A DNA stretch of 24,000 bases from Candidatus Iainarchaeum sp. (lineage in GTDB: Archaea; B1Sed10-29), in contig PWMI01000075.1 in NCBI GenBank assembly GCA_003558235.1, positions 1 to 24,000 on the forward strand, given 5' to 3'. The notes beneath the pieces were generated by a model. That model had not been told where the DNA came from and ran no database searches. It was given only the letters and a program-made list of their open reading frames with translations. The first letter of the stretch is position 1. Every line of letters starts with the position of its first letter. A program made the translations under genes and the position numbers. Shown here piece by piece: positions 3,761 through 24,000 of this stretch.

Positions 3761-5062
3761 TCAATCCAAACAATCAATCCTTCCGAAAACACCCAAATCG
3801 GTTTCAAGTACCTCGGAGAACTCAGCCTCTTCATTCCAGTAATCGGGCTCCCAGATAACGTTTCCATCGAACTTCCAGAGGAAAACAGCCACATCTTCAC
3901 ATGAAGTCTTCTCCTCAAGCTCCTCATAGGTCCTCGGGAGCTTCCTAAATCTATCGGAACCCATCAACCACCTAATCTGCTCATCATTAACCTGCATGTA
4001 GACTAAGCCATCCTCGTAACTCGAGATAGATTCTACTCCATCAAGGTACCTCTGCACACCCCAGTTCCTCTGAGCCTGCCTGAACCTAGCGAACACGAAG
4101 GCCCCGGAAAGAACGAGGGAAACAATCAAAATCAAAGCCATTACCCTGTTTCTCTCCACTCTAGCCAGCCCCTTCGCCGAAGGGAGCAGTAATCCAGGCA
4201 AAAAGAAGATAGTGTACCTAGCAACCCACGTAGCACTAAGCAACAGGGTCCCAGCTATCACCAACAAGCAGTAGACAAGGGAAAACCTAACGAAGGTATC
4301 GGAAAGATCCAGATTCCTCCTACCCCATAACAAGAGGAGCAACACAGGACCTAACCCTACCATAAACATCGAGATGAAGCTACTCAAACCAGGGAGAGCT
4401 ATCGGGTAAGAGTAACTCAAAGAGTACTCCAAGAAAAGGAACATGCTTGAACCCACCAAAAGAGTATACCCTACCAAAGGAGCAAAAGTAGAGACCAAGA
4501 ACCTCTTAAACTCGATCTTACTGTGAAAAAAGAGAAAAACAGGGACAAGGAGCAACGCGGATTCCTTCGTAAGAACAGCTAAAGACAGAGAAAGACCCAT
4601 CAACCAACTCCACTTATTCCTCTCCCCCCACTCATTCACAGATCTCAGGAAGAAGTAAATGGATAACAGAACGAAGAAGAGCACCACGTAGTCAGTCAAG
4701 ATGGTTCCGAAGTAGAACAGTAGTATGGGAGAGAACAGCATAGGTAGAGAAGTAAGTTCTCCTGGAAGATCAACTTCTTCACCTATCCAGAAAGCCAGTA
4801 AGAAAGACCCTAAAACAAAGGGAAGAATGATTAAGCGAGCCAACGGAAGAGGCAGACCAGAAACCAAGAAAGCAAGGGAAACGAAGGCAGGTCTGTGAAC
4901 CACGGGTATCTCGATCTCAGGGACCAGATTCCCTCTTCTCCAGGAAGCACCGTAGTTTAGGTATGTTCCCTCATCAGGATACATCCTAGGAATGAAAGAA
5001 GTAGCTAAAAACAGTAGGGTTACCAAGATCATGATTGAAACTATCTTACTTTTCCTATTCAT
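3761..5062 (-). CDS. GT-C glycosyltransferase, PMT/ArnT-like (GT39/GT83-type) membrane protein
   Basis: Multi-TM protein with 'YPDEGTY' in the first loop after TM1, the DE motif of PMT/ArnT-type lipid-linked-sugar transferases. The track ORF starts at a TTG (5089). The ATG at 5062 (MNRKSK...) is preceded by a G-rich SD-like run and overlaps the truD stop by 8 nt, so I prefer 5062. Confidence 0.6.
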   Translation of the reverse strand: MNRKSKIVSIMILVTLLFLATSFIPRMYPDEGTYLNYGASWRRGNLVPEIEIPVVHRPAFVSLAFLVSGLPLPLARLIILPFVLGSFLLAFWIGEEVDLPGELTSLPMLFSPILLFYFGTILTDYVVLFFVLLSIYFFLRSVNEWGERNKWSWLMGLSLSLAVLTKESALLLVPVFLFFHSKIEFKRFLVSTFAPLVGYTLLVGSSMFLFLEYSLSYSYPIALPGLSSFISMFMVGLGPVLLLLLWGRRNLDLSDTFVRFSLVYCLLVIAGTLLLSATWVARYTIFFLPGLLLPSAKGLARVERNRVMALILIVSLVLSGAFVFARFRQAQRNWGVQRYLDGVESISSYEDGLVYMQVNDEQIRWLMGSDRFRKLPRTYEELEEKTSCEDVAVFLWKFDGNVIWEPDYWNEEAEFSEVLETDLGVFGRIDCLD

Positions 5063-6137
5063 CTTTTTTCCCCCCAAAAAGTTGCTCAACAGCGACCGTT
5101 GCGTAGCTTCCCTTCGGAAGAGAGAACCTCACTATGTAAAAACCTTCTCCTTCTTTTAGTACTTCAAAGTCCTTTAACTCTATGAACAATTTTCTCCTTT
5201 CACCTTTCTCACTTAATTCGGGCATCAGGGTGTTCTTGAATTCACTCAGATCCAAATCGTGTCTTTCAAGGATTCTAAGTTCGTATTCGTTCTTTATTTC
5301 TGTGTTGTACCCGTAGATTGGTCCTTCTTCCTGTTTTAAGTTCTTGTCCTTGATTTCATCTATGTATTCATTGAACAGGTGGCTCTGGTATGCGTGTATG
5401 AACATCATCTCCAGGTTATGGGGGAGTTTCCGTATCGCGTTTATGTGGTCCAGAGGGTACTCTGAGAGGTGGTGCAGCAGTATTCTTTCGTAGTGCAAGT
5501 ATGTGGGGTACTTCTTGAGAGCTTCTTTGAACTCTCCCCAGTTTTCTTTCAACCATCTTCTGGCTTTGAGGGACTCCGGGTTTTCCTCTGGAAACTCTTT
5601 GGTCAGGTATATCTTCACTGCTTCCTCGGGATTCTTCTTCAGGAGTGCTTCTCCAACCAGGTGAGTTATGGGCCTCACTTTGCCGAATCGCTGGTGCCCG
5701 TAGTAGTTTGGTATCTTCTCAGGAACTTCCTTTATCTCCTGATCTGTCTCTATCTTCAGGGTGAATCTGTTTCCCCAGAGGTCTCCCAAAGTGACTCTTT
5801 CCCGTGTTTTTTCCAGTGGAAAGAGTTTCAGTCTGTTTACCTTGAAGTTTTCCAGGTCCTTCGGCTCCGCATTATTTATTGATACTCTTTGACTGGTTAC
5901 TGCTCGCTTATCTTTTGTTCCCGCAAAACCTATTCTTCTCCTGGACATATGGAGGGAGTTGCTTATTGCTCTTATGGCTTTGTTCTGCTCCCAGTTATCT
6001 TTTATAAGAACACAGATTAGGTTGTTTCCCTTTGTCTCAGGATTAAATTTGTAGTCTTTTTTTATTTCCAGGACATCTTCGTTGGGAGTTATCTCTTCTA
6101 CAACGAAGTCTTCTGGGCTCTTCTTTATTTGATACAT
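5055..6137 (-). CDS. truD: tRNA pseudouridine synthase TruD/Pus7 family
   Basis: 360 aa. It starts 'MYQIKKSPEDFVVEEI' and contains the catalytic 'GFAGTKDKRAVTSQ' block (G-x-K-D-x-x-A-x-T-x-Q) diagnostic of TruD/Pus7. Confidence 0.9.
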   Translation of the reverse strand: MYQIKKSPEDFVVEEITPNEDVLEIKKDYKFNPETKGNNLICVLIKDNWEQNKAIRAISNSLHMSRRRIGFAGTKDKRAVTSQRVSINNAEPKDLENFKVNRLKLFPLEKTRERVTLGDLWGNRFTLKIETDQEIKEVPEKIPNYYGHQRFGKVRPITHLVGEALLKKNPEEAVKIYLTKEFPEENPESLKARRWLKENWGEFKEALKKYPTYLHYERILLHHLSEYPLDHINAIRKLPHNLEMMFIHAYQSHLFNEYIDEIKDKNLKQEEGPIYGYNTEIKNEYELRILERHDLDLSEFKNTLMPELSEKGERRKLFIELKDFEVLKEGEGFYIVRFSLPKGSYATVAVEQLFGGKKDE

Positions 6138-6146
6138 CTATCTTCC

Positions 6147-7352
6147 TCAGTACCTTAGGATGGCGGCTATTCCTCCGAATGCCTGGTAGAACTGTTTTCC
6201 TTTGTCTGTTTCAGTTGAGATGTACAGTATTTCTGACCCGGTTTCTTCCGCCATCTTTTCAAGTTCATCAGAGACGTCTTTCTCTTCTTTTGTTTTCATC
6301 TCGTTGTTGCACTCTGGACATATCTTTCCTTGTTTCTCGAACTCGTCCCAGTCCTTCACGAGTTCTTTTTTGATTTCTCCGCAGGATGGGCACTCTAACT
6401 CTACGTGTGCCCATTCCAGTTCGTCTGATAAGAGTAGTTTATCTACTTTTCCTTCTTCCAGTGCTTTTACTACTTCTCTGAGCCCGTAGGTTGCTAGGTG
6501 GCTGTCCACCAGTTTTCTCAGGAACTCGTTCACGATCTCTCTTTCTTGCTGTACTTCTAGGTCTTCTATTACTTCTTCTGATTTCTCCATTAGTTCTTTT
6601 ACTCCTGATTCGTCCGAGTAGCCTGTGTTTATCTTTCCGATTATCTTGTCTTTGACTCTTTTGGTGAGATATTTTTTGCTCGCTAGATCGTCCTTTGTTT
6701 GTCCGGGTCCTCCTAGTATCACACCTTTTATTTCTTCTTTATCAAGTTCGTGGTTTACTGCGTCCCCCACTTTTTTGAGGAACTCGTGTCTGGCTTCGTT
6801 TATTAGTCTTTCAAATCTTCTTTGGCTCCATCCTCCTTTCGTGTGTTTTGAGGGTACGCTTGAGCTGAATCTTTGCCTTATTTCCAAGTTTTTACCTGTT
6901 AATTTGGCTATTGTAGCGTCTTTTCCATCTATCGTGACTAATCCGTATTTTTCTTTTGATTCCACCAGTTTTTCGAGTGGTTCAAGGTAGAAGCGTGAGT
7001 CGCATCTGTAGAGGTTTATCTTTATGGGGTTTGGGGGGATTATTCTGTACTGCTTTACGTCTCCTGCTATGTATCCGCAGAATATGGCTACTCCATTTTT
7101 AGGTGGTTTCTTCACGCCTGTTAATGCGTGTATTATGCTCTTCAATGCTGCTTGAACGTTTTTTCGCGTTGACTTTGACTTTATGTTTGCGGCTTCACTG
7201 TACTCGGTTCTCAGCCTACTTACTTCTTGGCTTATGTTGTGGTCGCCTGGAATGTAGATGCTGATTAACTCGGTTCCCTTTCCTTTCTTCTTCTTGAGTT
7301 GTTTCAGTTTCTTTTCAAGCTGCTTTTTTTCTTTGTCGTCCATCTCGATCAC
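6147..7352 (-). CDS. prf1: peptide chain release factor aRF1 (non-canonical GGW motif)
   Basis: 401 aa with an aRF1 N-domain: 'ELISIYIPG', NIKS (aa 56-59) and YxCxxxF ('YRCDSRF', aa 115-121). The middle domain reads 'SKHTKGGWSQRRFERL' where aRF1/eRF1 have 'HGRGGQSAxRFxRL'. The C-domain carries a CxxC...CxxC insertion. The track start is a GTG at 7352; the ATG at 7343 (MDDKEKK) with an upstream GTGAT is an alternative. Confidence 0.9.
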   Translation of the reverse strand: MIEMDDKEKKQLEKKLKQLKKKKGKGTELISIYIPGDHNISQEVSRLRTEYSEAANIKSKSTRKNVQAALKSIIHALTGVKKPPKNGVAIFCGYIAGDVKQYRIIPPNPIKINLYRCDSRFYLEPLEKLVESKEKYGLVTIDGKDATIAKLTGKNLEIRQRFSSSVPSKHTKGGWSQRRFERLINEARHEFLKKVGDAVNHELDKEEIKGVILGGPGQTKDDLASKKYLTKRVKDKIIGKINTGYSDESGVKELMEKSEEVIEDLEVQQEREIVNEFLRKLVDSHLATYGLREVVKALEEGKVDKLLLSDELEWAHVELECPSCGEIKKELVKDWDEFEKQGKICPECNNEMKTKEEKDVSDELEKMAEETGSEILYISTETDKGKQFYQAFGGIAAILRY

Positions 7353-7434: not shown

Positions 7435-8388
7435 TCATCTGTCTTTTGCGTTGACCAGTTCCTTCGCTTCGCTGGGGAGCAGTATTGGTTTTTCATAGTT
7501 TTTCCAGTCATCCAGAACTATCCTTGGGCACGCGTTTATCACGAATGCATCGAAGGGGAGGTAGTTTACCTTGTTCGGTGTTATCTCAGTCATTTTAACT
7601 TCGTAAACTTTCTTTCCTTTCTCTCTGAGGGTTTTCTTGGTTTCTTTGAGGAGGGGTGTGTCGATCTGGCCGGGGTGCTTCGTGGTGATTAATGCGAATG
7701 TTTTCGCGTTCCTCGCTTTGTCTTTACGGATTTCCTTTTCCTTCATCCACTGCCCGGGTTTCACTGTGGTAACTTCTCCGTTGTAGGGATTTCCTTGAAT
7801 GATCTCGGTTCCTACTGCGTTGGCTACTCCTTGGGGGTGAAACTTCCCTGATCCTATGAATAGGAGGGAGTCAGCTTTCTTCACTTCGAGTGTGGAATCG
7901 AAGGAGCATCCTAGTACTTGGGCTTCGCGAACACGTTCGTTTCCTGGGTAGGTTACGGGGGTCTTCCCTAGCTCTCTTACTGCTTTTTTCATGTCCGGTA
8001 GCTTGTGTAGGTGCTGTGTTAGTGTAACTATGCCTATTTTTTCCCCTTTTGCTTTCTCCGCTGCTTTTTTGGTTACTTCGTGGACTTCGAGATTTGACTT
8101 TATCGGTAAGTACATGGTGTTTTCTGCTTCGATCATCTCGGTGTGGCCGAAGTGTAGAACGAGATCGTAGTCCTTCATTTCTTCCTTAGTAGGTATGCAG
8201 CATGCTCCCCATATCATACCGCCATCTAAAACTGCTTCGGCGTTAGTTTCTTCTTTTATGGTTTCCATTATCTCCTTTGACTTTGTTTTCATTCCTTCAG
8301 GTAGTTGTATCAATACTCTAGAAGGAGAGTCTCTCTTTATCCTTTCTACTACTCTCTCTAGTTCCAGGTTATACTTCATTTTTTTCAT
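7435..8388 (-). CDS. dph2: diphthamide biosynthesis enzyme Dph2 (2-(3-amino-3-carboxypropyl)histidine synthase)
   Basis: 317 aa. 'RVLIQLPEGMK' at the N-terminus is typical of Dph1/Dph2. There are three candidate [4Fe-4S] cysteines in separate domains ('WGACC', 'VLGCSF', 'INACPR'), as in archaeal Dph2. Confidence 0.85.
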   Translation of the reverse strand: MKKMKYNLELERVVERIKRDSPSRVLIQLPEGMKTKSKEIMETIKEETNAEAVLDGGMIWGACCIPTKEEMKDYDLVLHFGHTEMIEAENTMYLPIKSNLEVHEVTKKAAEKAKGEKIGIVTLTQHLHKLPDMKKAVRELGKTPVTYPGNERVREAQVLGCSFDSTLEVKKADSLLFIGSGKFHPQGVANAVGTEIIQGNPYNGEVTTVKPGQWMKEKEIRKDKARNAKTFALITTKHPGQIDTPLLKETKKTLREKGKKVYEVKMTEITPNKVNYLPFDAFVINACPRIVLDDWKNYEKPILLPSEAKELVNAKDR

Positions 8389-8500
8389 CTCTTGCTGTAG
8401 TTTTTCTTGGTTTCCTTATTCATTAACTTTGATTAACTAAGGGTCGTCTGGAAACTGGGAAAACAGGAAATGCCTTATTTTCATGTTGTGTGAAGAATAC

Positions 8501-8546
8501 AAAAGGTTATATATTGTAAGTGTTGTAAATATTGTAAATTTGTAGG
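8501..8546 (+). promoter_or_regulatory. putative archaeal promoter (BRE/TATA) plus tandem TTGTAA operator-like repeats upstream of the toxin-antitoxin operon
   Basis: 'AAAAGG TTATATAT' at 8501-8513 looks like a purine-rich BRE followed by a TATA box. It is followed immediately by TTGTAAGTG / TTGTAAATA / TTGTAAATT / TTGTAGG, starting at 8514, 8523, 8532 and 8540 (9-bp period). These repeats overlap the expected transcription start, about 25 bp downstream of the TATA. Confidence 0.35.
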
Positions 8547-8554
8547 TGGTATTT

Positions 8555-8758
8555 ATGGTTCAAAAGATGGAGAAAAGAATACCTGTATCTGAATCTAGGT
8601 GGAAGCAGCTTGGAGAGATGAAAGGAGCTGGAGTCACGTATGATCAGTTGATAAAAGAACTGATTCAAAAGGCAAATAGGTATGAGCTGGCGAAAAAGTT
8701 AAGAAAAGCTGAGAGAGGAGAGGGAAAGTGGTTGAAGTTGGAGGAAAACGTTGAATGA
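8555..8758 (+). CDS. type II antitoxin (archaeal VapB/RelB-like small protein)
   Basis: 67 aa from ATG 8555, with SD-like AGGTGGT at 8543-8549 (the track uses GTG 8546). 'KRIPVSESRWKQLGEMKGAGVTYDQLIKELI' matches the archaeal small-antitoxin pattern x-I-x-V-S-x-x-x-x-x-x-L-x-x-x-K-G...(S/T)(F/Y)-(S/D)-x-(L/V)-I. Its stop overlaps the toxin start (ATGA, 8755-8758). Confidence 0.6.
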   Translation: MVQKMEKRIPVSESRWKQLGEMKGAGVTYDQLIKELIQKANRYELAKKLRKAERGEGKWLKLEENVE

Positions 8759-9042
8759 AGGATTATAGCGTACAGATCTCTGAAGAGGTTTACCAGTATC
8801 TTGATTCATTGGATAAAAAAAGTAGGAGGGTGTGTAGAGAAAACTTAAAGAAATTAAGTAAACCTTATCCAGGTGAAGGGATAGGAGACAAAGAGAAGAT
8901 AGTGGTTGAGGGAAAAGAAGCTTACAGGATTCATATTGGAAGAACTTACACTGCTTTTTATACAATCCTTAAGGACAGGAGGATAGTTAGAGTAGTTGAA
9001 CTTTTGCCGATAGATAAAGCTCACAAGAAGTATGTTTACTGA
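8755..9042 (+). CDS. relE: RelE/ParE-family toxin (mRNA interferase)
   Basis: 95 aa. 'YRIHIGRTYTAFYTILKDRRIVRVVELLPIDKAHKKY' is the typical RelE/ParE C-terminal core (Y-R-I-x-x-G-x-Y-R-x-x-Y...h-x-R-K-x-x-Y). It is translationally coupled to the upstream antitoxin. Confidence 0.8.
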   Translation: MKDYSVQISEEVYQYLDSLDKKSRRVCRENLKKLSKPYPGEGIGDKEKIVVEGKEAYRIHIGRTYTAFYTILKDRRIVRVVELLPIDKAHKKYVY

Positions 9043-9222
9043 TTTTTCTTAAGTTAGGTTTATTCTTAAAATTTCTGCTAGTCCCACTATTTTTTATAGG
9101 TTTTTTCTTTCAGATTTTTATCGTCGTATCCACAGAGATTAAGTGCGCACATCACGGTGAATAGTCTCCATCTGTTTCTACCGCCATCCTAGCCATGATT
9201 TCACTTTGATTAAAATAGGTGA

Positions 9223-9378
9223 TGGGGTCTGGGAGATTTGAATTCGGGAACCGGTTACTGGTTTTCTCCCGTCAACTGGTGTCCTCCACACCAATTGGAC
9301 ATCATAGCGATGAATCGCTCAGCGCTCCTTCGTCTGTGACTGGAGCCAGTTAGGATAACCAGACTACCCTAAGACCCC
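9223..9378 (-). tRNA. tRNA-Trp (anticodon CCA) with two introns (59 nt at 37/38, 23 nt at 53/54)
   Basis: Minus-strand read: GGGGTCT TA GGGT AGTCTGGTTA TCCT A ACTGG CTCCAG | intron 1 (9339..9281) | A CCAGT TGAC GGGAG | intron 2 (9265..9243) | TTCAAAT CTCCC AGACCCC A. The exons (39+15+20 = 74 nt) fold into a full cloverleaf. The anticodon CCA is at 9343..9341, the discriminator is A73, and no CCA tail is encoded. The spliced T-arm GGGAG-TTCAAAT-CTCCC is identical to that of tRNA-Ile at 22760..22834. Both splice-site pairs sit in bulge-helix-bulge motifs (details in findings). Confidence 0.8.
9300..9322 (-). other. K-turn (box D'/C'-like) motif inside tRNA-Trp intron 1
   Basis: Minus strand reads CUGA (9322..9319) - GCGA UUCA UCGC stem-loop - UA - UGAUGU (9304..9299). 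This has the D' box / capped loop / C' box geometry of an L7Ae-binding K-turn: tandem sheared G.A pairs, a U.U pair and a closing G-C pair are all possible. Confidence 0.45.
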
Positions 9379-9405
9379 ATCTGTGAATATTAATACGGTT
9401 GTTCA

Positions 9406-9606
9406 TTATAAGTTTTTTCTTTTCCTTGCTTTCTTTTCAAGTTCCTCGAATACCTTGATTTCGTTCGTTCCTTCCGCTTTTATGCATTCTTGGTCCTTGG
9501 TCATGGCGCAGAAAAGGTTTTTCTCCCCTTTCACGTGGTAGTGGTTCATTCCGACTATGCTCCAATCTTTTAAAGTGGGTTTGTTCCAGGGTAGGTCATT
9601 TTTCAT
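9406..9606 (-). CDS. small hypothetical protein (66 aa) between the two intron-containing tRNA genes
   Basis: The track ORF 9406..9663 begins inside tRNA-Arg, so its first 19 codons read the tRNA 3' half. The internal ATG at 9606 gives 'MKNDLPWNKPTLKDWSIVGMNHYHVKGEKNLFCAMTKDQECIKAEGTNEIKVFEELEKKARKRKNL'. Third codon positions are A/C-leaning like other minus-strand genes here. No family recognised. Confidence 0.45.
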   Translation of the reverse strand: MKNDLPWNKPTLKDWSIVGMNHYHVKGEKNLFCAMTKDQECIKAEGTNEIKVFEELEKKARKRKNL

Positions 9607-9638
9607 TCTTTCACTTCCTTTTTTGAATTTCTTTTCAA

Positions 9639-9768
9639 CGGGCCTGGTGGGATTTGAACCCACGATCTACAGCTCCCTCCCAAACTTTTTGAAAAAGTTT
9701 GCTTTGAATCAAAACTTTTCTAAAGTTTTGTTAGGAGGCTGTTGCCCTATCCACTAGGCTACAGGCCC
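9639..9768 (-). tRNA. tRNA-Arg (anticodon CCT) with a 57-nt canonical intron at 37/38
   Basis: Minus-strand read: GGGCCTG TA GCCT AGTGGATA GGGC A ACAGC CTCCTA | intron (9731..9675) | A GCTGT AGATC GTGGG TTCAAAT CCCAC CAGGCCC G. The mature tRNA is 73 nt. The BHB is textbook: central helix CUCC/GGAG, 5' bulge UA|A, 3' bulge GG|A, outer helix CAAA/UUUG. An AT-rich TATA-like box (gtatatttat, 9791-9800) lies about 25 nt upstream. Confidence 0.9.
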
Positions 9769-9825
9769 AATCACTCGAAGTTGGTATGGGGTATATTTAT
9801 TCTTGGAGTAAAATAAAGATACTGG

Positions 9826-9882
9826 ATGATGAAGCGAACAACCAATGAGGTTCTCCAACCGATGATTAAACCTTTTTTCTGA
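9826..9882 (+). ncRNA. candidate box C/D sRNA (2'-O-methylation guide)
   Basis: Elements in order: C box AUGAUGA (9826-9832), 12-nt guide AGCGAACAACCA, D' AUGA (9845-9848), GGUU-CUCC-AACC stem-loop, C' AUGAUUA (9862-9868), 10-nt guide AACCUUUUUU, D box CUGA (9879-9882). Total length is 57 nt. The non-consensus D' A1 and C' U6 can still pair, which looks like a compensatory change. A TATA-like box lies about 25 nt upstream and a T-run (9892-9900) just downstream. Confidence 0.5.
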
Positions 9883-9900
9883 CGTTCATGATTATTTTTT

Positions 9901-10638
9901 CTATTCCAGGTTTCTCTTCAGGCTCTTGGTTAAGAAGGGTGACTTTACCCATGCGCCGACTTCTCCTTCTTCTTCTCGGGGGGTCAAGAAGAGGATGGAG
10001 TGGTCATCTATCGCCATGAATCTGTGTCCGTGTTCTTTTTCTTTGACTTCCATGAACTCGTGTTCGCTTGGAATTCCATGGTCTTTGTGTGTGAATAACT
10101 TTATTTTAACGCCTCTATCCTTGGCTTGCTTCAGGGCTTCGCTGTACTTCACTAGGTTGTCCTTCATGTCGTTTGGATCTGTTGCGATCACAACTTCTTC
10201 TTGAGCGTTCTCCATGAGTGATTTTATCTTGGACTCTATCTTTAAGTGATCGTTCAGGAGCCATAGTAGGTTGTTGCTCCTTTCTTTTCTAGGGGTTATC
10301 TGTTCTACTTCTTCCTGAAGGGTTTGTTTTACTTTTTCTATCTCTTCTATCCTTTCTTCGTGTTCCTTTATCTCTATTCTCTTCAGGTTATCTATTGATT
10401 CTTTTACTGGGAGGGCACTGTATTTTATGGGTCTCGATGGCTGCTGTGTTACCATTCCCTTCTTTTCAAGGTCTCTTAAAACATCGTAGGTTCTTGGGCG
10501 AGGTATATCTGCTTCTTCTCCAACTTCGGATGCTGACAGGGGCTTTTCCTTCAGCAGTAGTGAGAGGTATGCCTTTGATTCATACTGGTTCAATCCAGCT
10601 TTTTTCAGTTCATTGATGAGGTCTTTTCTCTTACTCAT
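9901..10638 (-). CDS. TrmB-family transcriptional regulator
   Basis: N-terminal winged-helix 'LINELKKAGLNQYESKAYLSLLLKEKPLSASEVGEEADIPRPRTYDVLRDLEKKGMV' is the TrmB HTH signature, followed by a coiled linker and a C-terminal domain. The track start is 10665. The ATG at 10638 (MSKRKDL...) fits the family N-terminus and the TATA position better. Confidence 0.8.
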   Translation of the reverse strand: MSKRKDLINELKKAGLNQYESKAYLSLLLKEKPLSASEVGEEADIPRPRTYDVLRDLEKKGMVTQQPSRPIKYSALPVKESIDNLKRIEIKEHEERIEEIEKVKQTLQEEVEQITPRKERSNNLLWLLNDHLKIESKIKSLMENAQEEVVIATDPNDMKDNLVKYSEALKQAKDRGVKIKLFTHKDHGIPSEHEFMEVKEKEHGHRFMAIDDHSILFLTPREEEGEVGAWVKSPFLTKSLKRNLE

Positions 10639-10683
10639 TTTAACGTCACCGGTATGATCATTCATGTGGAGTAAAACACTTTG

Positions 10684-10794: not shown

Positions 10795-12033
10795 ATGAAA
10801 TTAATTAACTCAGGATTGGGAGCACTTAAAGTAGCTCTACTAGCAGCAATACTGGTTACTGCACTATCCACTTCGGCACTCGCTTTGAACATCGTGATCG
10901 AAGACCAGGTTAGAACAGTATCCTCAGAAGAAACCGCGCAGTTCGCAATCGAACTAACCAACACGCAGGATGAATTCGAGGCAGTTGAACTGTCCGCTGA
11001 ATCGGATGTTTCAACTAGTTTCTCATCCAGGCAGTTGACACTTGGACCGGGAGAAACCAAGACAACTTACCTTTTTGCAGTTCCCCTCAACAAGGGTGAA
11101 GGAACGTACATGATAAGGCTCAATGTTAACCAGGAAACAAGGCTCCTGGCTCTAGAAGTAGTCGAAGGAAGACCAGCACTTGAACTGTACAATGGCTACG
11201 GAAAAGTAACGGCTGTACAGGACTCAACGCAGAGCATAAGGATGGTCGCGAGGAACTCCGGAGACAGAGAACTTAGAAACATAGTCGTGAAAGGAGACTT
11301 CTCAGAAAGACTCAACGCTAAATACAGTCCTGAGGTATTTCACCTGGATGCAGGAGAAGAAAGAGAAGTAACGGTGGTTCTAGACGTGCCGCTTGACTAC
11401 CCCAAGGACCTTTACGACTACAAGGTAACGATAGCATCAGGAGACACCAGCGCCTCAGAAGAGGTAAGGCTTGAAGTGATCGGGGCTGTTCCAATGAAGA
11501 ACAGAATGAGCCTAGAAACACTTAGAGCATGGGAAAAATTACTTGATGAAGATGGGGATGTAGTGGGATACAAGGTCCCGATGCGAGTAGTGAACAGGGG
11601 TTTGATAGACCTATCAGATGTCCAGTGGGAAGTGAGAGGACTCCCAGAAGGATGGGAAGTAACGGGAACCCAGGCCTTCGCGATAAGGGGAGCGGAAACA
11701 ATGGACAAAACGCTCTCATTCAACACCAACGGGGACTTCAGAGACAGGGTAGTGGAAGTAGCACTACTTAAGAATGGTAGAGAGATAACAACCGAACAGA
11801 TAGAGTTCCACGGTAGAAAAGTAGGAGTAAGAGGAACAGGACTTGTTCTCGGTGGAGCAGGATCAGTCATGCTGGGACTAATGGTCGTAGCAGCACTGCT
11901 AGTGATAGTTTACCTCGTCAGAGAAAAGAATAAAGCAATGGAAGAATCTGGAAGAGCAACTGACCAAAGTAAACTGAAGAGGCTCGTTGACGAAGCACTT
12001 AAAAGAGAAGAAAAGTCAGAAGAAGAGGAGTAA
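10795..12033 (+). CDS. secreted, membrane-anchored cell-surface protein with CARDB/NEW3-like Ig-fold repeats
   Basis: 412 aa. It has an N-terminal signal peptide (MKLINSGLGALKVALLAAILVTALSTSALA). Repeated beta-rich modules follow the pattern 'xxNxGxxxLxNVxV...(P/L)xxGExxxVxVxLxVPxDxxxGxYxxxV', as in archaeal surface/adhesion domains. A C-terminal TM helix (GLVLGGAGSVMLGLMVVAALLVIVYLV) is followed by a charged tail. Confidence 0.7.
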   Translation: MKLINSGLGALKVALLAAILVTALSTSALALNIVIEDQVRTVSSEETAQFAIELTNTQDEFEAVELSAESDVSTSFSSRQLTLGPGETKTTYLFAVPLNKGEGTYMIRLNVNQETRLLALEVVEGRPALELYNGYGKVTAVQDSTQSIRMVARNSGDRELRNIVVKGDFSERLNAKYSPEVFHLDAGEEREVTVVLDVPLDYPKDLYDYKVTIASGDTSASEEVRLEVIGAVPMKNRMSLETLRAWEKLLDEDGDVVGYKVPMRVVNRGLIDLSDVQWEVRGLPEGWEVTGTQAFAIRGAETMDKTLSFNTNGDFRDRVVEVALLKNGREITTEQIEFHGRKVGVRGTGLVLGGAGSVMLGLMVVAALLVIVYLVREKNKAMEESGRATDQSKLKRLVDEALKREEKSEEEE

Positions 12034-17187: not shown

Positions 17188-18450
17188 TCAACTTGTGCCC
17201 CACAAGTCTAGTGCTTTTTTGAGCTCGATGTGGTCTTCCGCGTAGTCCCATGGGTCGATTCCCTTCATCTTAGCATCTACAACTTGCCTCATCGCTCTGG
17301 CTCCTGCTTTAGATCCATCAGGGTGCCCGTGCACGCCCCCTCCAGACTGGATTATTACGTCGTTCCCCATGAATTCCATTAGGGGATCCACGTGTCCTGG
17401 GTGCAGTCCTCCACTGGATACTGCGAAGACGGGTTTTATGTGGTGCCATTCCTGCCCGAGTTCTTTTGTTTCGTCTCTGGATTTTATCTTCATCTTTTCC
17501 ACGTTTTCAGCTATCATCCTAACCTCCTCTTTTCCCCCCTCCATCTTACCTACTGCTGTTCCTACGTGGAGTTGATCTACTCCCATGAGTCGATATAGTT
17601 TCGCTAGTGCCAGCATAGTTATTCCATGTTTCTTGTTTCTTGTTAGGGCTCCGTGCATCGCTCTGTGGGCATGCATGATTAAATCTGGTCCATTTTCCCT
17701 CATCTCCTGAACTGCTGAGAACCCAGTGGTCAATACATCTATCATCATGTACCGTCCACCCATCTCCTTTATCAATTCTGCTCTTTCCATCATCTCGCTT
17801 GACCCAGCGGTCGTGTTACACATGTAGACCTTTTTTTCTCCTGTTTCCTCTTCAGCTATGTCTCTCGATTCAAGGGTGGCTGCTAACCTATCTTCATAGA
17901 TGTTGAAGGGCTGGCTCGTTAGGTTTTCATCGTCTTTCACTACGTCGCATCCACCTATCCATGATTCTTCAGCGACCTTGGCGTGGCTCTTCGCATCCAG
18001 GCCTAGTTTTGGCTTTACTATGGTGCCGACTAAGGGTCTTTCAGGCACTTCCATTGTTTTCCGGACTCCTTCGATACCGTACCTTGGTCCCGCGTATTCT
18101 TCGATCATCTTCTTAGGGAACTTTACGTCCACTAACCTTAGGTTATCTATTGCCTTCATTCCGAATATATTTCCAGCTATCGAGCTCATCACCTGGGGGA
18201 TGTTGCTCAATTCAAACAGTTCTGAAGGATAAGCCACCTCCACGTAAGGATCATTGAGTTTGTAAGCCCTCGCTTTTATCCTCTTCGCTCTCTCGTTGAG
18301 TGTACCAAGGTGCGTCCACGTTCCAACGCTTGATTCCTTCGCGATGTGGTCACAAGCCCTCTCAAAACTGTTCTCTGAGTTGGGTTCAACTCTAAATAAA
18401 CATATCAAATCATCTTCACTCGGAGCATAATCTTTTTCCACAAATTCCAT
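17188..18450 (-). CDS. rbcL: ribulose-1,5-bisphosphate carboxylase/oxygenase large subunit, form III (archaeal type)
   Basis: 420 aa. Catalytic blocks are intact: 'GTIVKPKLGL', 'VKDDENL' (carbamylated Lys plus Mg ligands), 'HAHRAMHG', 'SSGGLHPG' and 'QSGGGVHGHP'. The length and the absence of a small subunit gene fit form III. Confidence 0.9.
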   Translation of the reverse strand: MEFVEKDYAPSEDDLICLFRVEPNSENSFERACDHIAKESSVGTWTHLGTLNERAKRIKARAYKLNDPYVEVAYPSELFELSNIPQVMSSIAGNIFGMKAIDNLRLVDVKFPKKMIEEYAGPRYGIEGVRKTMEVPERPLVGTIVKPKLGLDAKSHAKVAEESWIGGCDVVKDDENLTSQPFNIYEDRLAATLESRDIAEEETGEKKVYMCNTTAGSSEMMERAELIKEMGGRYMMIDVLTTGFSAVQEMRENGPDLIMHAHRAMHGALTRNKKHGITMLALAKLYRLMGVDQLHVGTAVGKMEGGKEEVRMIAENVEKMKIKSRDETKELGQEWHHIKPVFAVSSGGLHPGHVDPLMEFMGNDVIIQSGGGVHGHPDGSKAGARAMRQVVDAKMKGIDPWDYAEDHIELKKALDLWGTS

Positions 18451-22699: not shown

Positions 22700-22759
22700 G
22701 TAATCAAGTAGTAAACATCGAGTAACTATAAATTTGTTTTGGTCTAAAGCACGAAGCGA

Positions 22760-22834
22760 TGGGCCAGGGGAGATTTGAACTCCCGATCTCCCCGTTATCA
22801 GCAGGGCGCTTTAACCAGGCTAAGCCACTGGCCC
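22760..22834 (-). tRNA. tRNA-Ile (anticodon GAT), intron-less
   Basis: Minus-strand read: GGGCCAG TG GCTT AGCCTGGTTA AAGC G CCCTG CTGATAA CGGGG AGATC GGGAG TTCAAAT CTCCC CTGGCCC A. It is 75 nt and folds into a complete cloverleaf. Confidence 0.9.
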
Positions 22835-22970
22835 ACGAGAAAAATGAACTACAGGTAAATTATAGTCCACAATGATTAAAAAGGGTAGATGTATACTAAA
22901 AGTGGAATGCTTATAAAGCATCATGAAAATAAATATGTAAAATAATTGAAATCGTGGAGGATGAGAAGAT

Positions 22971-24000
22971 ATGATGTCAAAAATTAAGAAAAAGGAACTG
23001 GAACTGAAGAAGCTTAAACAGAAAGAAGCGCAAGAAGCAGCTAAAGAGTTGAAGAAGAAGATAGCAAAGGACTCAACTCTTACAAAGAATGTTTCTGATG
23101 TTGAACTAAAACGTAGAGAAGAAAAAATTGGAAATTTAGTCCAAAATCTGAAAACATATGAAGAAGTGAAAGGATCATATTCCCGCACAAAACTAAAAGA
23201 ACTTAAAAAGCAGATAGAAGAAGGTCAAAAGTATGTAAAAAATTACATCCTTCCAGATGTGAAAGAGGTACAAAAAGAATATGCTGGTGGAACCAAAGGA
23301 AGACGTCTTAAGAATCAGATAAATCGTCTTGAAGAAATCTCTGGAGTTAAAGTTGAGAGAAAGAAAGCAGAAGCAGCAGAAGCCGAGAGAAAGAAAGAAC
23401 AAATTAAACAAAGAACTGGGGAACTAGGAGAAAAATATGCTGAAGAAGTAAAGTGGAAAGCAGAACTGAGAGAACTAGGAAAAAAGTATGAAGAAGCAGG
23501 AACAAGGAAGGAAAAAGAAAAAGCTCTAAAAGAATTAAAGAAACATCAAAAAAGATCACCAGAATATGAAAAAGGGCTAAAGGAATTGAAGGAAAAGCAA
23601 CGAAAAGCTACTTCAAGCAAAAACAAAAAGAAATTCGGGAAAAAAATAGAAGAATACAAGGGAAAAGGACCAACAGCTCAGAGACAGGCATTAAAAGAAG
23701 TGTCTGAAGAAGCACAACAAGGAATGAAGATGTTCAGAGGTCCAAAGCAGACTATGGAAGGAGTCAACAAACAAGTTGAAAGGTTACAAGGTAGAATGGC
23801 GCACCTCAAGGAAGAAGCCTCAAAAGGAAATATAAGCACAGCAAAATACAACAGAGAAAGAAACAACCTCGTGGGCCAAATAAAGAAAGTAAGAAAATCA
23901 GCATCAGGACCTGCTAAGAGAGGAAAAACTCCAAAATGGGTTAAAACAGAAGAAAAAGAAACTAAAAGAAGAAAAAAAGACTCAGACATTAAAAGAGAAC
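22971..24000 (+). CDS. Lys/Glu-rich coiled-coil-like protein, 3'-truncated by the window edge (absent from the ORF track)
   Basis: I translated this frame by hand. ATG ATG at 22971 follows GGAGG (22956-22960). The frame then stays open for 343 codons to the window end: MMSKIKKKELELKKLKQKEAQEAAKELKKK...KWVKTEEKETKRRKKDSDIKRE. The three minus-strand track ORFs in this interval (22820..23188, 23193..23411, 23678..23989) are F/S/L-rich antisense shadows. No TM segment, signal peptide or family recognised. Confidence 0.6.
   Translation, partial: MMSKIKKKELELKKLKQKEAQEAAKELKKKIAKDSTLTKNVSDVELKRREEKIGNLVQNLKTYEEVKGSYSRTKLKELKKQIEEGQKYVKNYILPDVKEVQKEYAGGTKGRRLKNQINRLEEISGVKVERKKAEAAEAERKKEQIKQRTGELGEKYAEEVKWKAELRELGKKYEEAGTRKEKEKALKELKKHQKRSPEYEKGLKELKEKQRKATSSKNKKKFGKKIEEYKGKGPTAQRQALKEVSEEAQQGMKMFRGPKQTMEGVNKQVERLQGRMAHLKEEASKGNISTAKYNRERNNLVGQIKKVRKSASGPAKRGKTPKWVKTEEKETKRRKKDSDIKRE

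Follow-up and report, generated by a model that had tools for sequence, protein, structure and literature searches.

The GGQ tripeptide is described as the one motif common to all peptide-release factors, and for 25 years it has been debated what its Gln residue does: whether it positions the water, selects the nucleophile or serves for packing, and why it is methylated. What, then, is to be made of an archaeal class I release factor (aRF1) whose gene encodes Trp at this very position? The gene lies on the minus strand of a 24,000-nucleotide stretch of contig PWMI01000075.1 (assembly GCA_003558235.1) of Candidatus Iainarchaeum sp., referred to below as the window. A first-pass annotation, made from the DNA letters alone, had pointed out the substitution and offered three readings of it: an unusual functional release factor, a non-hydrolysing paralog with a role in stalling or rescue, or one of two aRF1 copies. 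The position of the locus, the constraint on the gene and the conservation of the substitution in its clade favour the first of these readings and disfavour the non-hydrolysing paralog. We consider that the protein is probably a functional aRF1, in which the catalytic carboxamide would have moved two residues downstream, to Q174 of a GGWSQ loop; both the release of the peptide and the part assigned to Q174 are predicted from the comparison of homologous sequences. A full-text literature search returned no paper on release factors with GGW or GGWSQ, and the literature on GGQ in the release factors of DPANN archaea was silent on them as well.

A Trp codon at the position of the GGQ glutamine

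When the sequence was re-read, GGA GGA TGG was found at 6836-6828 of the minus strand, exactly where the first-pass annotation had placed it. The minus-strand codons 6860..6822 (AGC GTA CCC TCA AAA CAC ACG AAA GGA GGA TGG AGC CAA) encode SVPSKHTKGGWSQ, followed by RRFERL. The coding sequence can be read in two lengths. A longer open reading frame (ORF), 6147-7352 on the minus strand, has a GTG start at 7352 and comprises 401 aa; however, related proteins start with MDxKEK and a GTGATC Shine-Dalgarno-like motif stands upstream of the ATG at 7343, which makes this ATG the likely start. Residues are therefore numbered here in the 398-aa form, so that G173, G174, W175 and Q177 of the first-pass annotation become G170, G171, W172 and Q174.

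By homology, fold and position the protein belongs to the aRF1 orthologous group, in which it represents a variant of the motif rather than a canonical GGQ factor. The aRF1 equivalog model of NCBIfam, TIGR03676, matches residues 6-398 with 464.1 bits (cut-off 234.7), and the Pfam domains eRF1_1, eRF1_2 and eRF1_3 are all detected, the M domain scoring 134 bits with eRF1_2 vs 49 bits with acVLRF1. An AlphaFold2 model of the protein (mean predicted local distance difference test score, pLDDT, of 87) has its best Foldseek match in the aRF1 structure 4af1, at a template-modelling (TM) score of 0.73, with eRF1 termination complexes also among the top matches. At the tip of its M domain the protein has GGW in place of the GGQ tripeptide; its membership in the aRF1 group despite this follows from homology and from the synteny described further below. 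A HMMER alignment to the solved chains of aRF1 and eRF1 sets W172 opposite the GGQ Gln with zero indels, in agreement with the earlier view that Gln was substituted by Trp and that no residue was inserted or lost; in the AlphaFold2 model, a long helix begins at W172. Two other identities were considered and rejected, namely Pelota, for which TIGR00111 gives only 90.6 bits vs a cut-off of 177.65 and with which the presence of the NIKS and YxCxxxF motifs does not agree, and a Balon-type or baeRF factor, the scores being below the family cut-offs (61 vs 320 for the Rv2629 family).

The most trivial explanation would be that the TGG is an error of sequencing or assembly, that the gene is a pseudogene, or that TGG is read as Gln. 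The oddity of the residue alone speaks for it, and its probability is practically nil, since the data already refute each of its versions. A protein search returned eight clusters (P0001-P0008) with 60-100% identity, originating from NCBI, ENA, JGI and Logan assemblies, all of which have KHTKGGWSQ[KR]RFER; these clusters are mutually 60-89% identical, yet the loop SKHTKGGWSQ is invariant among them, whereas the matches of the same search at <=50% identity are all GGQ proteins. The identical TGG codon is present in two related loci (L001 and L006) of independent assemblies. GGW is thus neither chance nor error, given the TGG codon in independent assemblies and GGW in 8/8 clusters of the clade; this bears out the first-pass estimate that a single-base error is unlikely, and it also provides the conservation of Trp within a clade, which had been left there as a point to check.

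The decaying pseudogene considered in the first-pass annotation finds equally little room, as the ORF is whole and well conserved and its constraint is like that of GGQ relatives. The GGW clade was set against a sister set of GGQ proteins of equal divergence, the pairwise identity being ~60-89% in both groups. The invariant sites amount to 45% in the GGW clade vs 46% in the sister set for the N domain, 46% vs 55% for the M domain and 35% vs 36% for the C domain, and to 18/23 vs 20/23 for the loop region; these fractions give no sign of relaxed selection on the GGW clade. As to recoding, TGG also encodes W309, which aligns with the conserved Trp of GGQ homologues; the genetic code is therefore standard, and TGG decoded as Gln is ruled out. 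No suppressor tRNA was found in the window, whose sole tRNA is tRNA-Ile(GAT). The first-pass statements on termination hold as well: of the 22 main ORFs of the window, 13 end in TGA, 5 in TAG and 4 in TAA, so that an omnipotent release factor is needed, and both motifs of stop-codon recognition, NIKS (N53-S56) and YRCDSRF (Y112-F118), are intact.

Loss of the GGQ glutamine recurs and is coupled to Gln at +2

According to the first-pass annotation, the Gln of GGQ is common to every class I release factor, and a 2018 study of Haloferax, in which the Gln of aRF1 is methylated by Mtq2, likewise called GGQ universally conserved in aRF1 (PMC6144793). This does not hold in uncultivated archaea. An exhaustive HMMER search with P0001 was carried out against 1.84 billion representatives at 50% identity, and the best 150 aRF1 representatives were examined. 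In these, the column of W172 contains Q in 124 cases, W in 12, M in 5, F in 5, A in 2, and S and E in one case each, i.e. 26 of the 150 nearest representatives (~17%) are devoid of the Gln, while the NIKS-type and YxCxxxF motifs are present in nearly all. The non-Gln forms are scattered across a neighbour-joining tree of the representatives. Six of them (P0001, P0263, P0292, P0336, P0340 and P0360) have GGQ proteins as their nearest relatives, at 50-63% identity, which argues for independent origins. Together with one clade of 13 members, these six single proteins would correspond to at least seven separate losses of the Gln, a count that is approximate because it is taken from a distance tree over deep divergences.

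The 13-representative clade was expanded by a protein search to 120 clusters, whose members bear the names Candidatus Aenigmarchaeota, Nanoarchaeota or Micrarchaeota. NIKS and YxCxxxF are present throughout the 120, and 115 of them have GGW, continued as WSQ in 83 clusters, WSAN in 29 and WSAS in one, with the loop interrupted by an intein in the remaining two; hence Gln at +2 or Asn at +3 is found in 112/113 uninterrupted GGW loops. GGWSQ has also been identified, among the matches listed, in 13 metagenome loci encoding aRF1s of crenarchaeal type (with NIKL and RRYDRIIEE, like Aeropyrum pernix 3agk), and 3agk itself reads GGQSQRRYERIIEQ at the loop. It appears rather likely that several archaeal lineages (the Iainarchaeum-like clade, most Aenigmarchaeota-like DPANN and some crenarchaeal-type lineages) terminate all their translation with a GG-[W/F/M/A]-S-Q loop in the sole class I release factor they would possess.

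The loss of the Gln is strongly coupled to the residue two positions downstream. Gln is present at +2 in 23/26 of the non-Gln representatives vs 30/124 (24%) of the GGQ representatives (Fisher p = 1e-9, uncorrected for phylogeny), the other GGQ representatives having A (76), S (14) or another residue (4) at this position. The Gln in question is the one that the first-pass annotation had mentioned, as Q177 of 'WSQ', as an alternative Gln at the catalytic tip. The coupling and the loop of the aVLRF-1 family described below lend weight to this suggestion.

The survey also revealed a number of aRF1s with interrupted loops. About 45 of the 150 representatives (including P0257, P0258, P0268, P0271, P0276, P0281 and P0298) are 500-1450 aa long, and their match to the query is split in two at residue 172/173. 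The interruption looks like an intein situated exactly between GG[Q/W/M/F/S] and the next Ser, with junctions such as ...KGGW/CVHEDD... and ...IVHN/SAHRFERL; PF14890, listed for two of the split aRF1s, is possibly an intein family. Two aRF1-like proteins, P0307 (GGS/intein/SAG) and P0383 (GGESAR), lack Gln both at position 0 and at +2; P0383, in which NIKS and YxCxxxF are missing too, is perhaps a paralogue without catalytic activity.

The aVLRF-1 loop and a putative catalytic role of Q174

The loop of the window protein has a counterpart outside aRF1. Metagenomes were scanned for DNA encoding the pattern K-H-x-x-G-G-W-S-x-x-R-[FY]-[DE]-R, and the best 80 loci (L086-L165) of at least 120 stretches were considered. 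All 80 have Gln at +2, though the pattern left this position free. About 64 of the 80 do not encode aRF1 but proteins with an N-terminal coiled coil, whose best Pfam match is acVLRF1 and which contain neither NIKS nor YxCxxxF nor the C-terminal domain. By these sequence features they can be equated with aVLRF-1, the family for which Burroughs and Aravind described a coiled-coil extension as well as a GGxSQ motif that occurs in acVLRF-1 too (Burroughs & Aravind 2019, PMC6514570). A second search was started from one such protein, without selecting for Trp, and many of its matches bear the NCBI name 'Vms1/Ankzf1 family peptidyl-tRNA hydrolase'. All of the 117 readable loops fit KH[ST]KGG[F/W/L]SQ[KR]RFER, with GGFSQ in 84, GGWSQ in 32 and GGLSQ in one.

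The family (P0124-P0243 and many of L086-L165) is abundant in methanogen-type archaea, with the nearly invariant loop KH[ST]KGG[F/W/L]SQ[KR]RFERLRE[ED]D, in which Methanosarcina-like proteins have Phe, and Methanomicrobiales-like ones Trp, as the aromatic residue. Two of the 80 loci, L089 and L119, encode a different, divergent three-domain aeRF1-like protein of ~385 aa, which has a zinc ribbon and the loop KHKKGGWSQMRFDR, is devoid of NIKS and YxCxxxF, and shows its best Pfam match to baeRF_family10.

How could such a loop work in termination? We propose that the intact N domain, with its NIKS and YxCxxxF motifs, would read all three stop codons, and that the M domain would insert the Gly-Gly loop into the peptidyl-transferase centre in the alternative form GG-W-S-Q. 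The bulky, hydrophobic Trp would replace the Gln, which is normally N5-methylated, and take over its role in packing, while the carboxamide that positions the hydrolytic water would be supplied by Q174, located where the helix beginning at W172 makes its first turn. This arrangement would be the GGxSQ (or GxuQ) of archaeal Vms1-like release factors. That the loop is active, that Trp packs and that Q174 provides the polar group is suggested by the hydrophobic nature of the replacements, by the carboxamide at +2 or +3 and by the invariant Ser-Gln of aVLRF-1. Moreover, loops with an offset Gln can be active, as in yeast Vms1, which depends on the first Gly and on the Gln of GGSQ and loses its function when the Ser is deleted so that the loop becomes GGQ (PMC5989216).

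Several points weigh against this proposal. In vivo, neither E. coli nor yeast tolerates a change of the Gln in GGQ. Q182E is cited alongside this intolerance (PMC12440015). The presence of Gln at +2 alone proves little, because it is common in GGQ aRF1s, where it occurs in the 24% of representatives given above and in 72/112 proteins of a biased top-hit list. Neither is it strictly required, since 30 Aenigmarchaeota-like clusters (a subgroup found among P0255 and P0394-P0511) have GGWSA without Gln at +2, in 29 cases as GGWSAN and in one as GGWSAS. Finally, the Gly-Gly loop of the AlphaFold2 model has pLDDT values of 65-72 and the model does not include the ribosome, so that the geometry of W172 with respect to Q174 stays a predicted one.

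On account of the 30 clusters without Gln at +2, one may conceive a functional aRF1 that works through the Trp itself. The backbone NH of the residue after Gly-Gly would then drive hydrolysis, W, F, M or A would mimic with its hydrophobic side chain the packing of N5-methyl-Gln, perhaps sparing the methylation by Mtq2, and Gln at +2 would be permissive. Such a variant, like our own proposal, agrees with published work in which the backbone amide of this Gln is credited with catalysis (PMC6742477) and its side chain with packing, enhanced by methylation (PMC5799190). It also agrees with the nature of the replacements, which are almost all hydrophobic (W 12, M 5, F 5, A 2), and with the location of W172 exactly at the Gln position, without any indel, where it N-caps the helix in the AlphaFold2 model. 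We regard it as possible but rather unlikely, because the coupling to Gln at +2, the Asn at +3 in 29 of the 30 GGWSA cases and the Ser-Gln invariant across 117 aVLRF-1 loops all point to continued selection for a carboxamide close by. The GGWSAN loops suggest that in this subgroup the carboxamide has moved a second time.

The locus, the number of copies and the relation to known factors

The GGW gene occupies the ancestral aRF1 locus and is orthologous to the GGQ genes of sister lineages, since the Dph2-aRF1-TruD neighbourhood is common to the GGQ aRF1s of sister DPANN lineages. The order of genes in the window (Table 1) is NPCBM-like, TrmB, Dph2, aRF1, TruD. The GGQ aRF1 P0010, which is 49% identical to the window protein and comes from a metagenome-assembled genome labelled Candidatus Micrarchaeota, is found (L003) in the same orientation within the order NPCBM-like, TrmB, ..., Dph2, amino-acid kinase, aRF1, TruD. 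Another GGQ aRF1, P0016 from Candidatus Diapherotrites (L005), has TruD immediately downstream, and the GGW relative P0004 (L001) has Dph2 upstream and TruD downstream. We would thus rank the gene as probably the vertically inherited aRF1 of a DPANN archaeon, with relatives labelled Candidatus Iainarchaeum, Diapherotrites or Micrarchaeota.

This orthology is also the first point against the idea that the GGW protein is a specialised, non-hydrolysing copy beside a canonical GGQ aRF1, used for stalling, rescue, ribosome splitting with ABCE1, or hibernation. Such a role would have parallels in Gln-less homologues (Pelota, Balon-type), which have non-catalytic functions, and the scan of the genome collection for aRF1 gives a view of the best 80 of at least 600 matches, in which a further copy may not figure. 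Among these 80, one genome with GGW is represented, PWFL01 (Candidatus Iainarchaeum), with one aRF1 locus and no second aRF1, which speaks weakly against an additional copy. The reduced genomes of such archaea are normally single-copy for aRF1. Besides, NIKS and YxCxxxF are intact and the constraint is not relaxed, GGW characterizes 115/120 aRF1 clusters of a whole DPANN lineage, and the loop of the window protein is invariant in its clade, whereas the loops of the non-catalytic relatives are variable and poorly conserved (PMC6514570). Altogether, a non-hydrolysing copy seems improbable.

Table 1. Features of the aRF1 gene and of its neighbours, in window coordinates
Feature	Position	Strand	Remarks
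aRF1 coding sequence	6147..7343	-	398 aa from ATG at 7343; eRF1_1/2/3 domains
G170 G171 W172 (GGA GGA TGG)	6828..6836	-	Trp at the position of the GGQ Gln
Q174 (CAA), Gln of the GGWSQ / GxuQ loop	6822..6824	-	invariant in the clade; proposed relocated catalytic carboxamide
NIKS stop-codon recognition motif, N53-S56	7176..7187	-	all four columns invariant in the alignment
YxCxxxF motif (YRCDSRF), Y112-F118	6990..7010	-	Y112, C114 and F118 invariant in the alignment
Zinc-ribbon insertion CxxC...CxxC of the C domain (C318, C321, C342, C345)	6309..6392	-	C318, C321 and C342 invariant, C345 nearly so (>=90%) in the homologue alignment
TruD tRNA pseudouridine synthase, downstream neighbour	5055..6137	-	Pfam TruD, 6e-104
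Dph2-like diphthamide synthase, upstream neighbour	7435..8388	-	Pfam Diphthamide_syn, 7.5e-63
TrmB	9901-10665		
NPCBM-associated protein	10795-12033		

Further genes of the window fit a DPANN-type archaeon: those for MetRS, an XPD helicase, a homologue of the RuBisCO large subunit, a KaiC-like ATPase, UbiA and ScpB. RuBisCO of form III is expected in a DPANN archaeon; the homologue in the window is encoded at 17188-18450 (-) and matches Pfam with 6.7e-91. Between Dph2 and TrmB, the region 8389-9900 is gene-poor, its sole ORF (95 aa; 8755-9042, +) being without a Pfam match; the counterpart of this region in the GGQ locus L003 contains other small genes and a KaiC-like ATPase. The tRNA-Ile(GAT) gene at 22758-22835 (-) overlaps the 3' end of a 122-aa ORF (22820-23188, -) without a Pfam match, which makes the end of this ORF, or its reality, doubtful.

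If such loops do terminate all translation in these lineages, the canonical Gln and its methylation by Mtq2 would be replaceable in vivo, provided that a carboxamide is available one helical step further on, and the Vms1-type loop would be an interchangeable alternative solution and no peculiarity of rescue factors. The textbook motif is not universal, and the lineages concerned are predicted to need no Mtq2 methylation of aRF1. The loops GGWSQ, GGFSQ, GGMSQ, GGASQ and GGWSAN offer natural test variants for the role of the Gln on archaeal ribosomes. In practical terms, annotation rules and catalytic-residue filters that demand GGQ would mislabel these essential genes as inactive.

With canonical aRF1 and eRF1 (TIGR03676; structures 4af1, 3agk, 1dt9 and 5lzu) the window protein shares three domains, the NIKS and YxCxxxF motifs, a zinc-ribbon C domain, a Gly-Gly loop continued by S-x-x-R-F-x-R-L and the overall fold, as well as, with the aRF1s of sister lineages, the TruD and Dph2 neighbours. 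It differs from them by the Trp after Gly-Gly, the sole nearby Gln being located two residues downstream. Pelota/Dom34 and the Balon-type factors resemble it in the aeRF1 fold and in the absence of Gln at the canonical position; unlike the window protein, however, they are devoid of NIKS and YxCxxxF, and their loops are poorly conserved.

Vms1/ANKZF1, with its GxxQ loop, is similar in that the Gln it depends on does not directly follow the glycines (GGSQ in yeast), but it is a eukaryotic factor of ribosome-associated quality control that acts on 60S-peptidyl-tRNA and lacks a domain for stop codons. Whether its reaction is ester hydrolysis or cleavage of CCA is disputed, and by analogy the window protein might cut the 3'-CCA of the tRNA instead of hydrolysing the ester, with subsequent repair by the CCA-adding enzyme. 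The identity of the window loop with that of aVLRF-1 could be quoted in support, along with the reported ability of ANKZF1 to cleave off the CCA end (review, PMC7026593). However, damage to a tRNA at each termination would be very costly, the chemistry of aVLRF-1 is itself only putative, and the rest of the M domain is of aRF1 type, judging from the eRF1_2 and acVLRF1 scores given above, all of which renders such a reaction very improbable here.

In its loop the window protein resembles aVLRF-1, the sequence being the same over ~14 residues, KH[ST]KGG[W/F]SQ[KR]RFER vs KHTKGGWSQRRFER in the window protein. Otherwise the two proteins differ: aVLRF-1 carries a coiled coil at its N-terminus, is devoid of NIKS, YxCxxxF and a C-terminal eRF1_3 domain, matches acVLRF1 best among the Pfam families and presumably needs no stop codon for its action; beyond the loop, its M domain shares little sequence with that of the window protein. 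As judged by sequence, the window loop is the aVLRF-1 loop set in an otherwise ordinary aRF1. An import of the loop from aVLRF-1 by gene conversion was considered, but convergence seems more likely, because the similarity stops at the loop and because such loops have several origins on different aRF1 backgrounds. The shared loop ties the canonical release factor to the Vms1-like rescue factors.

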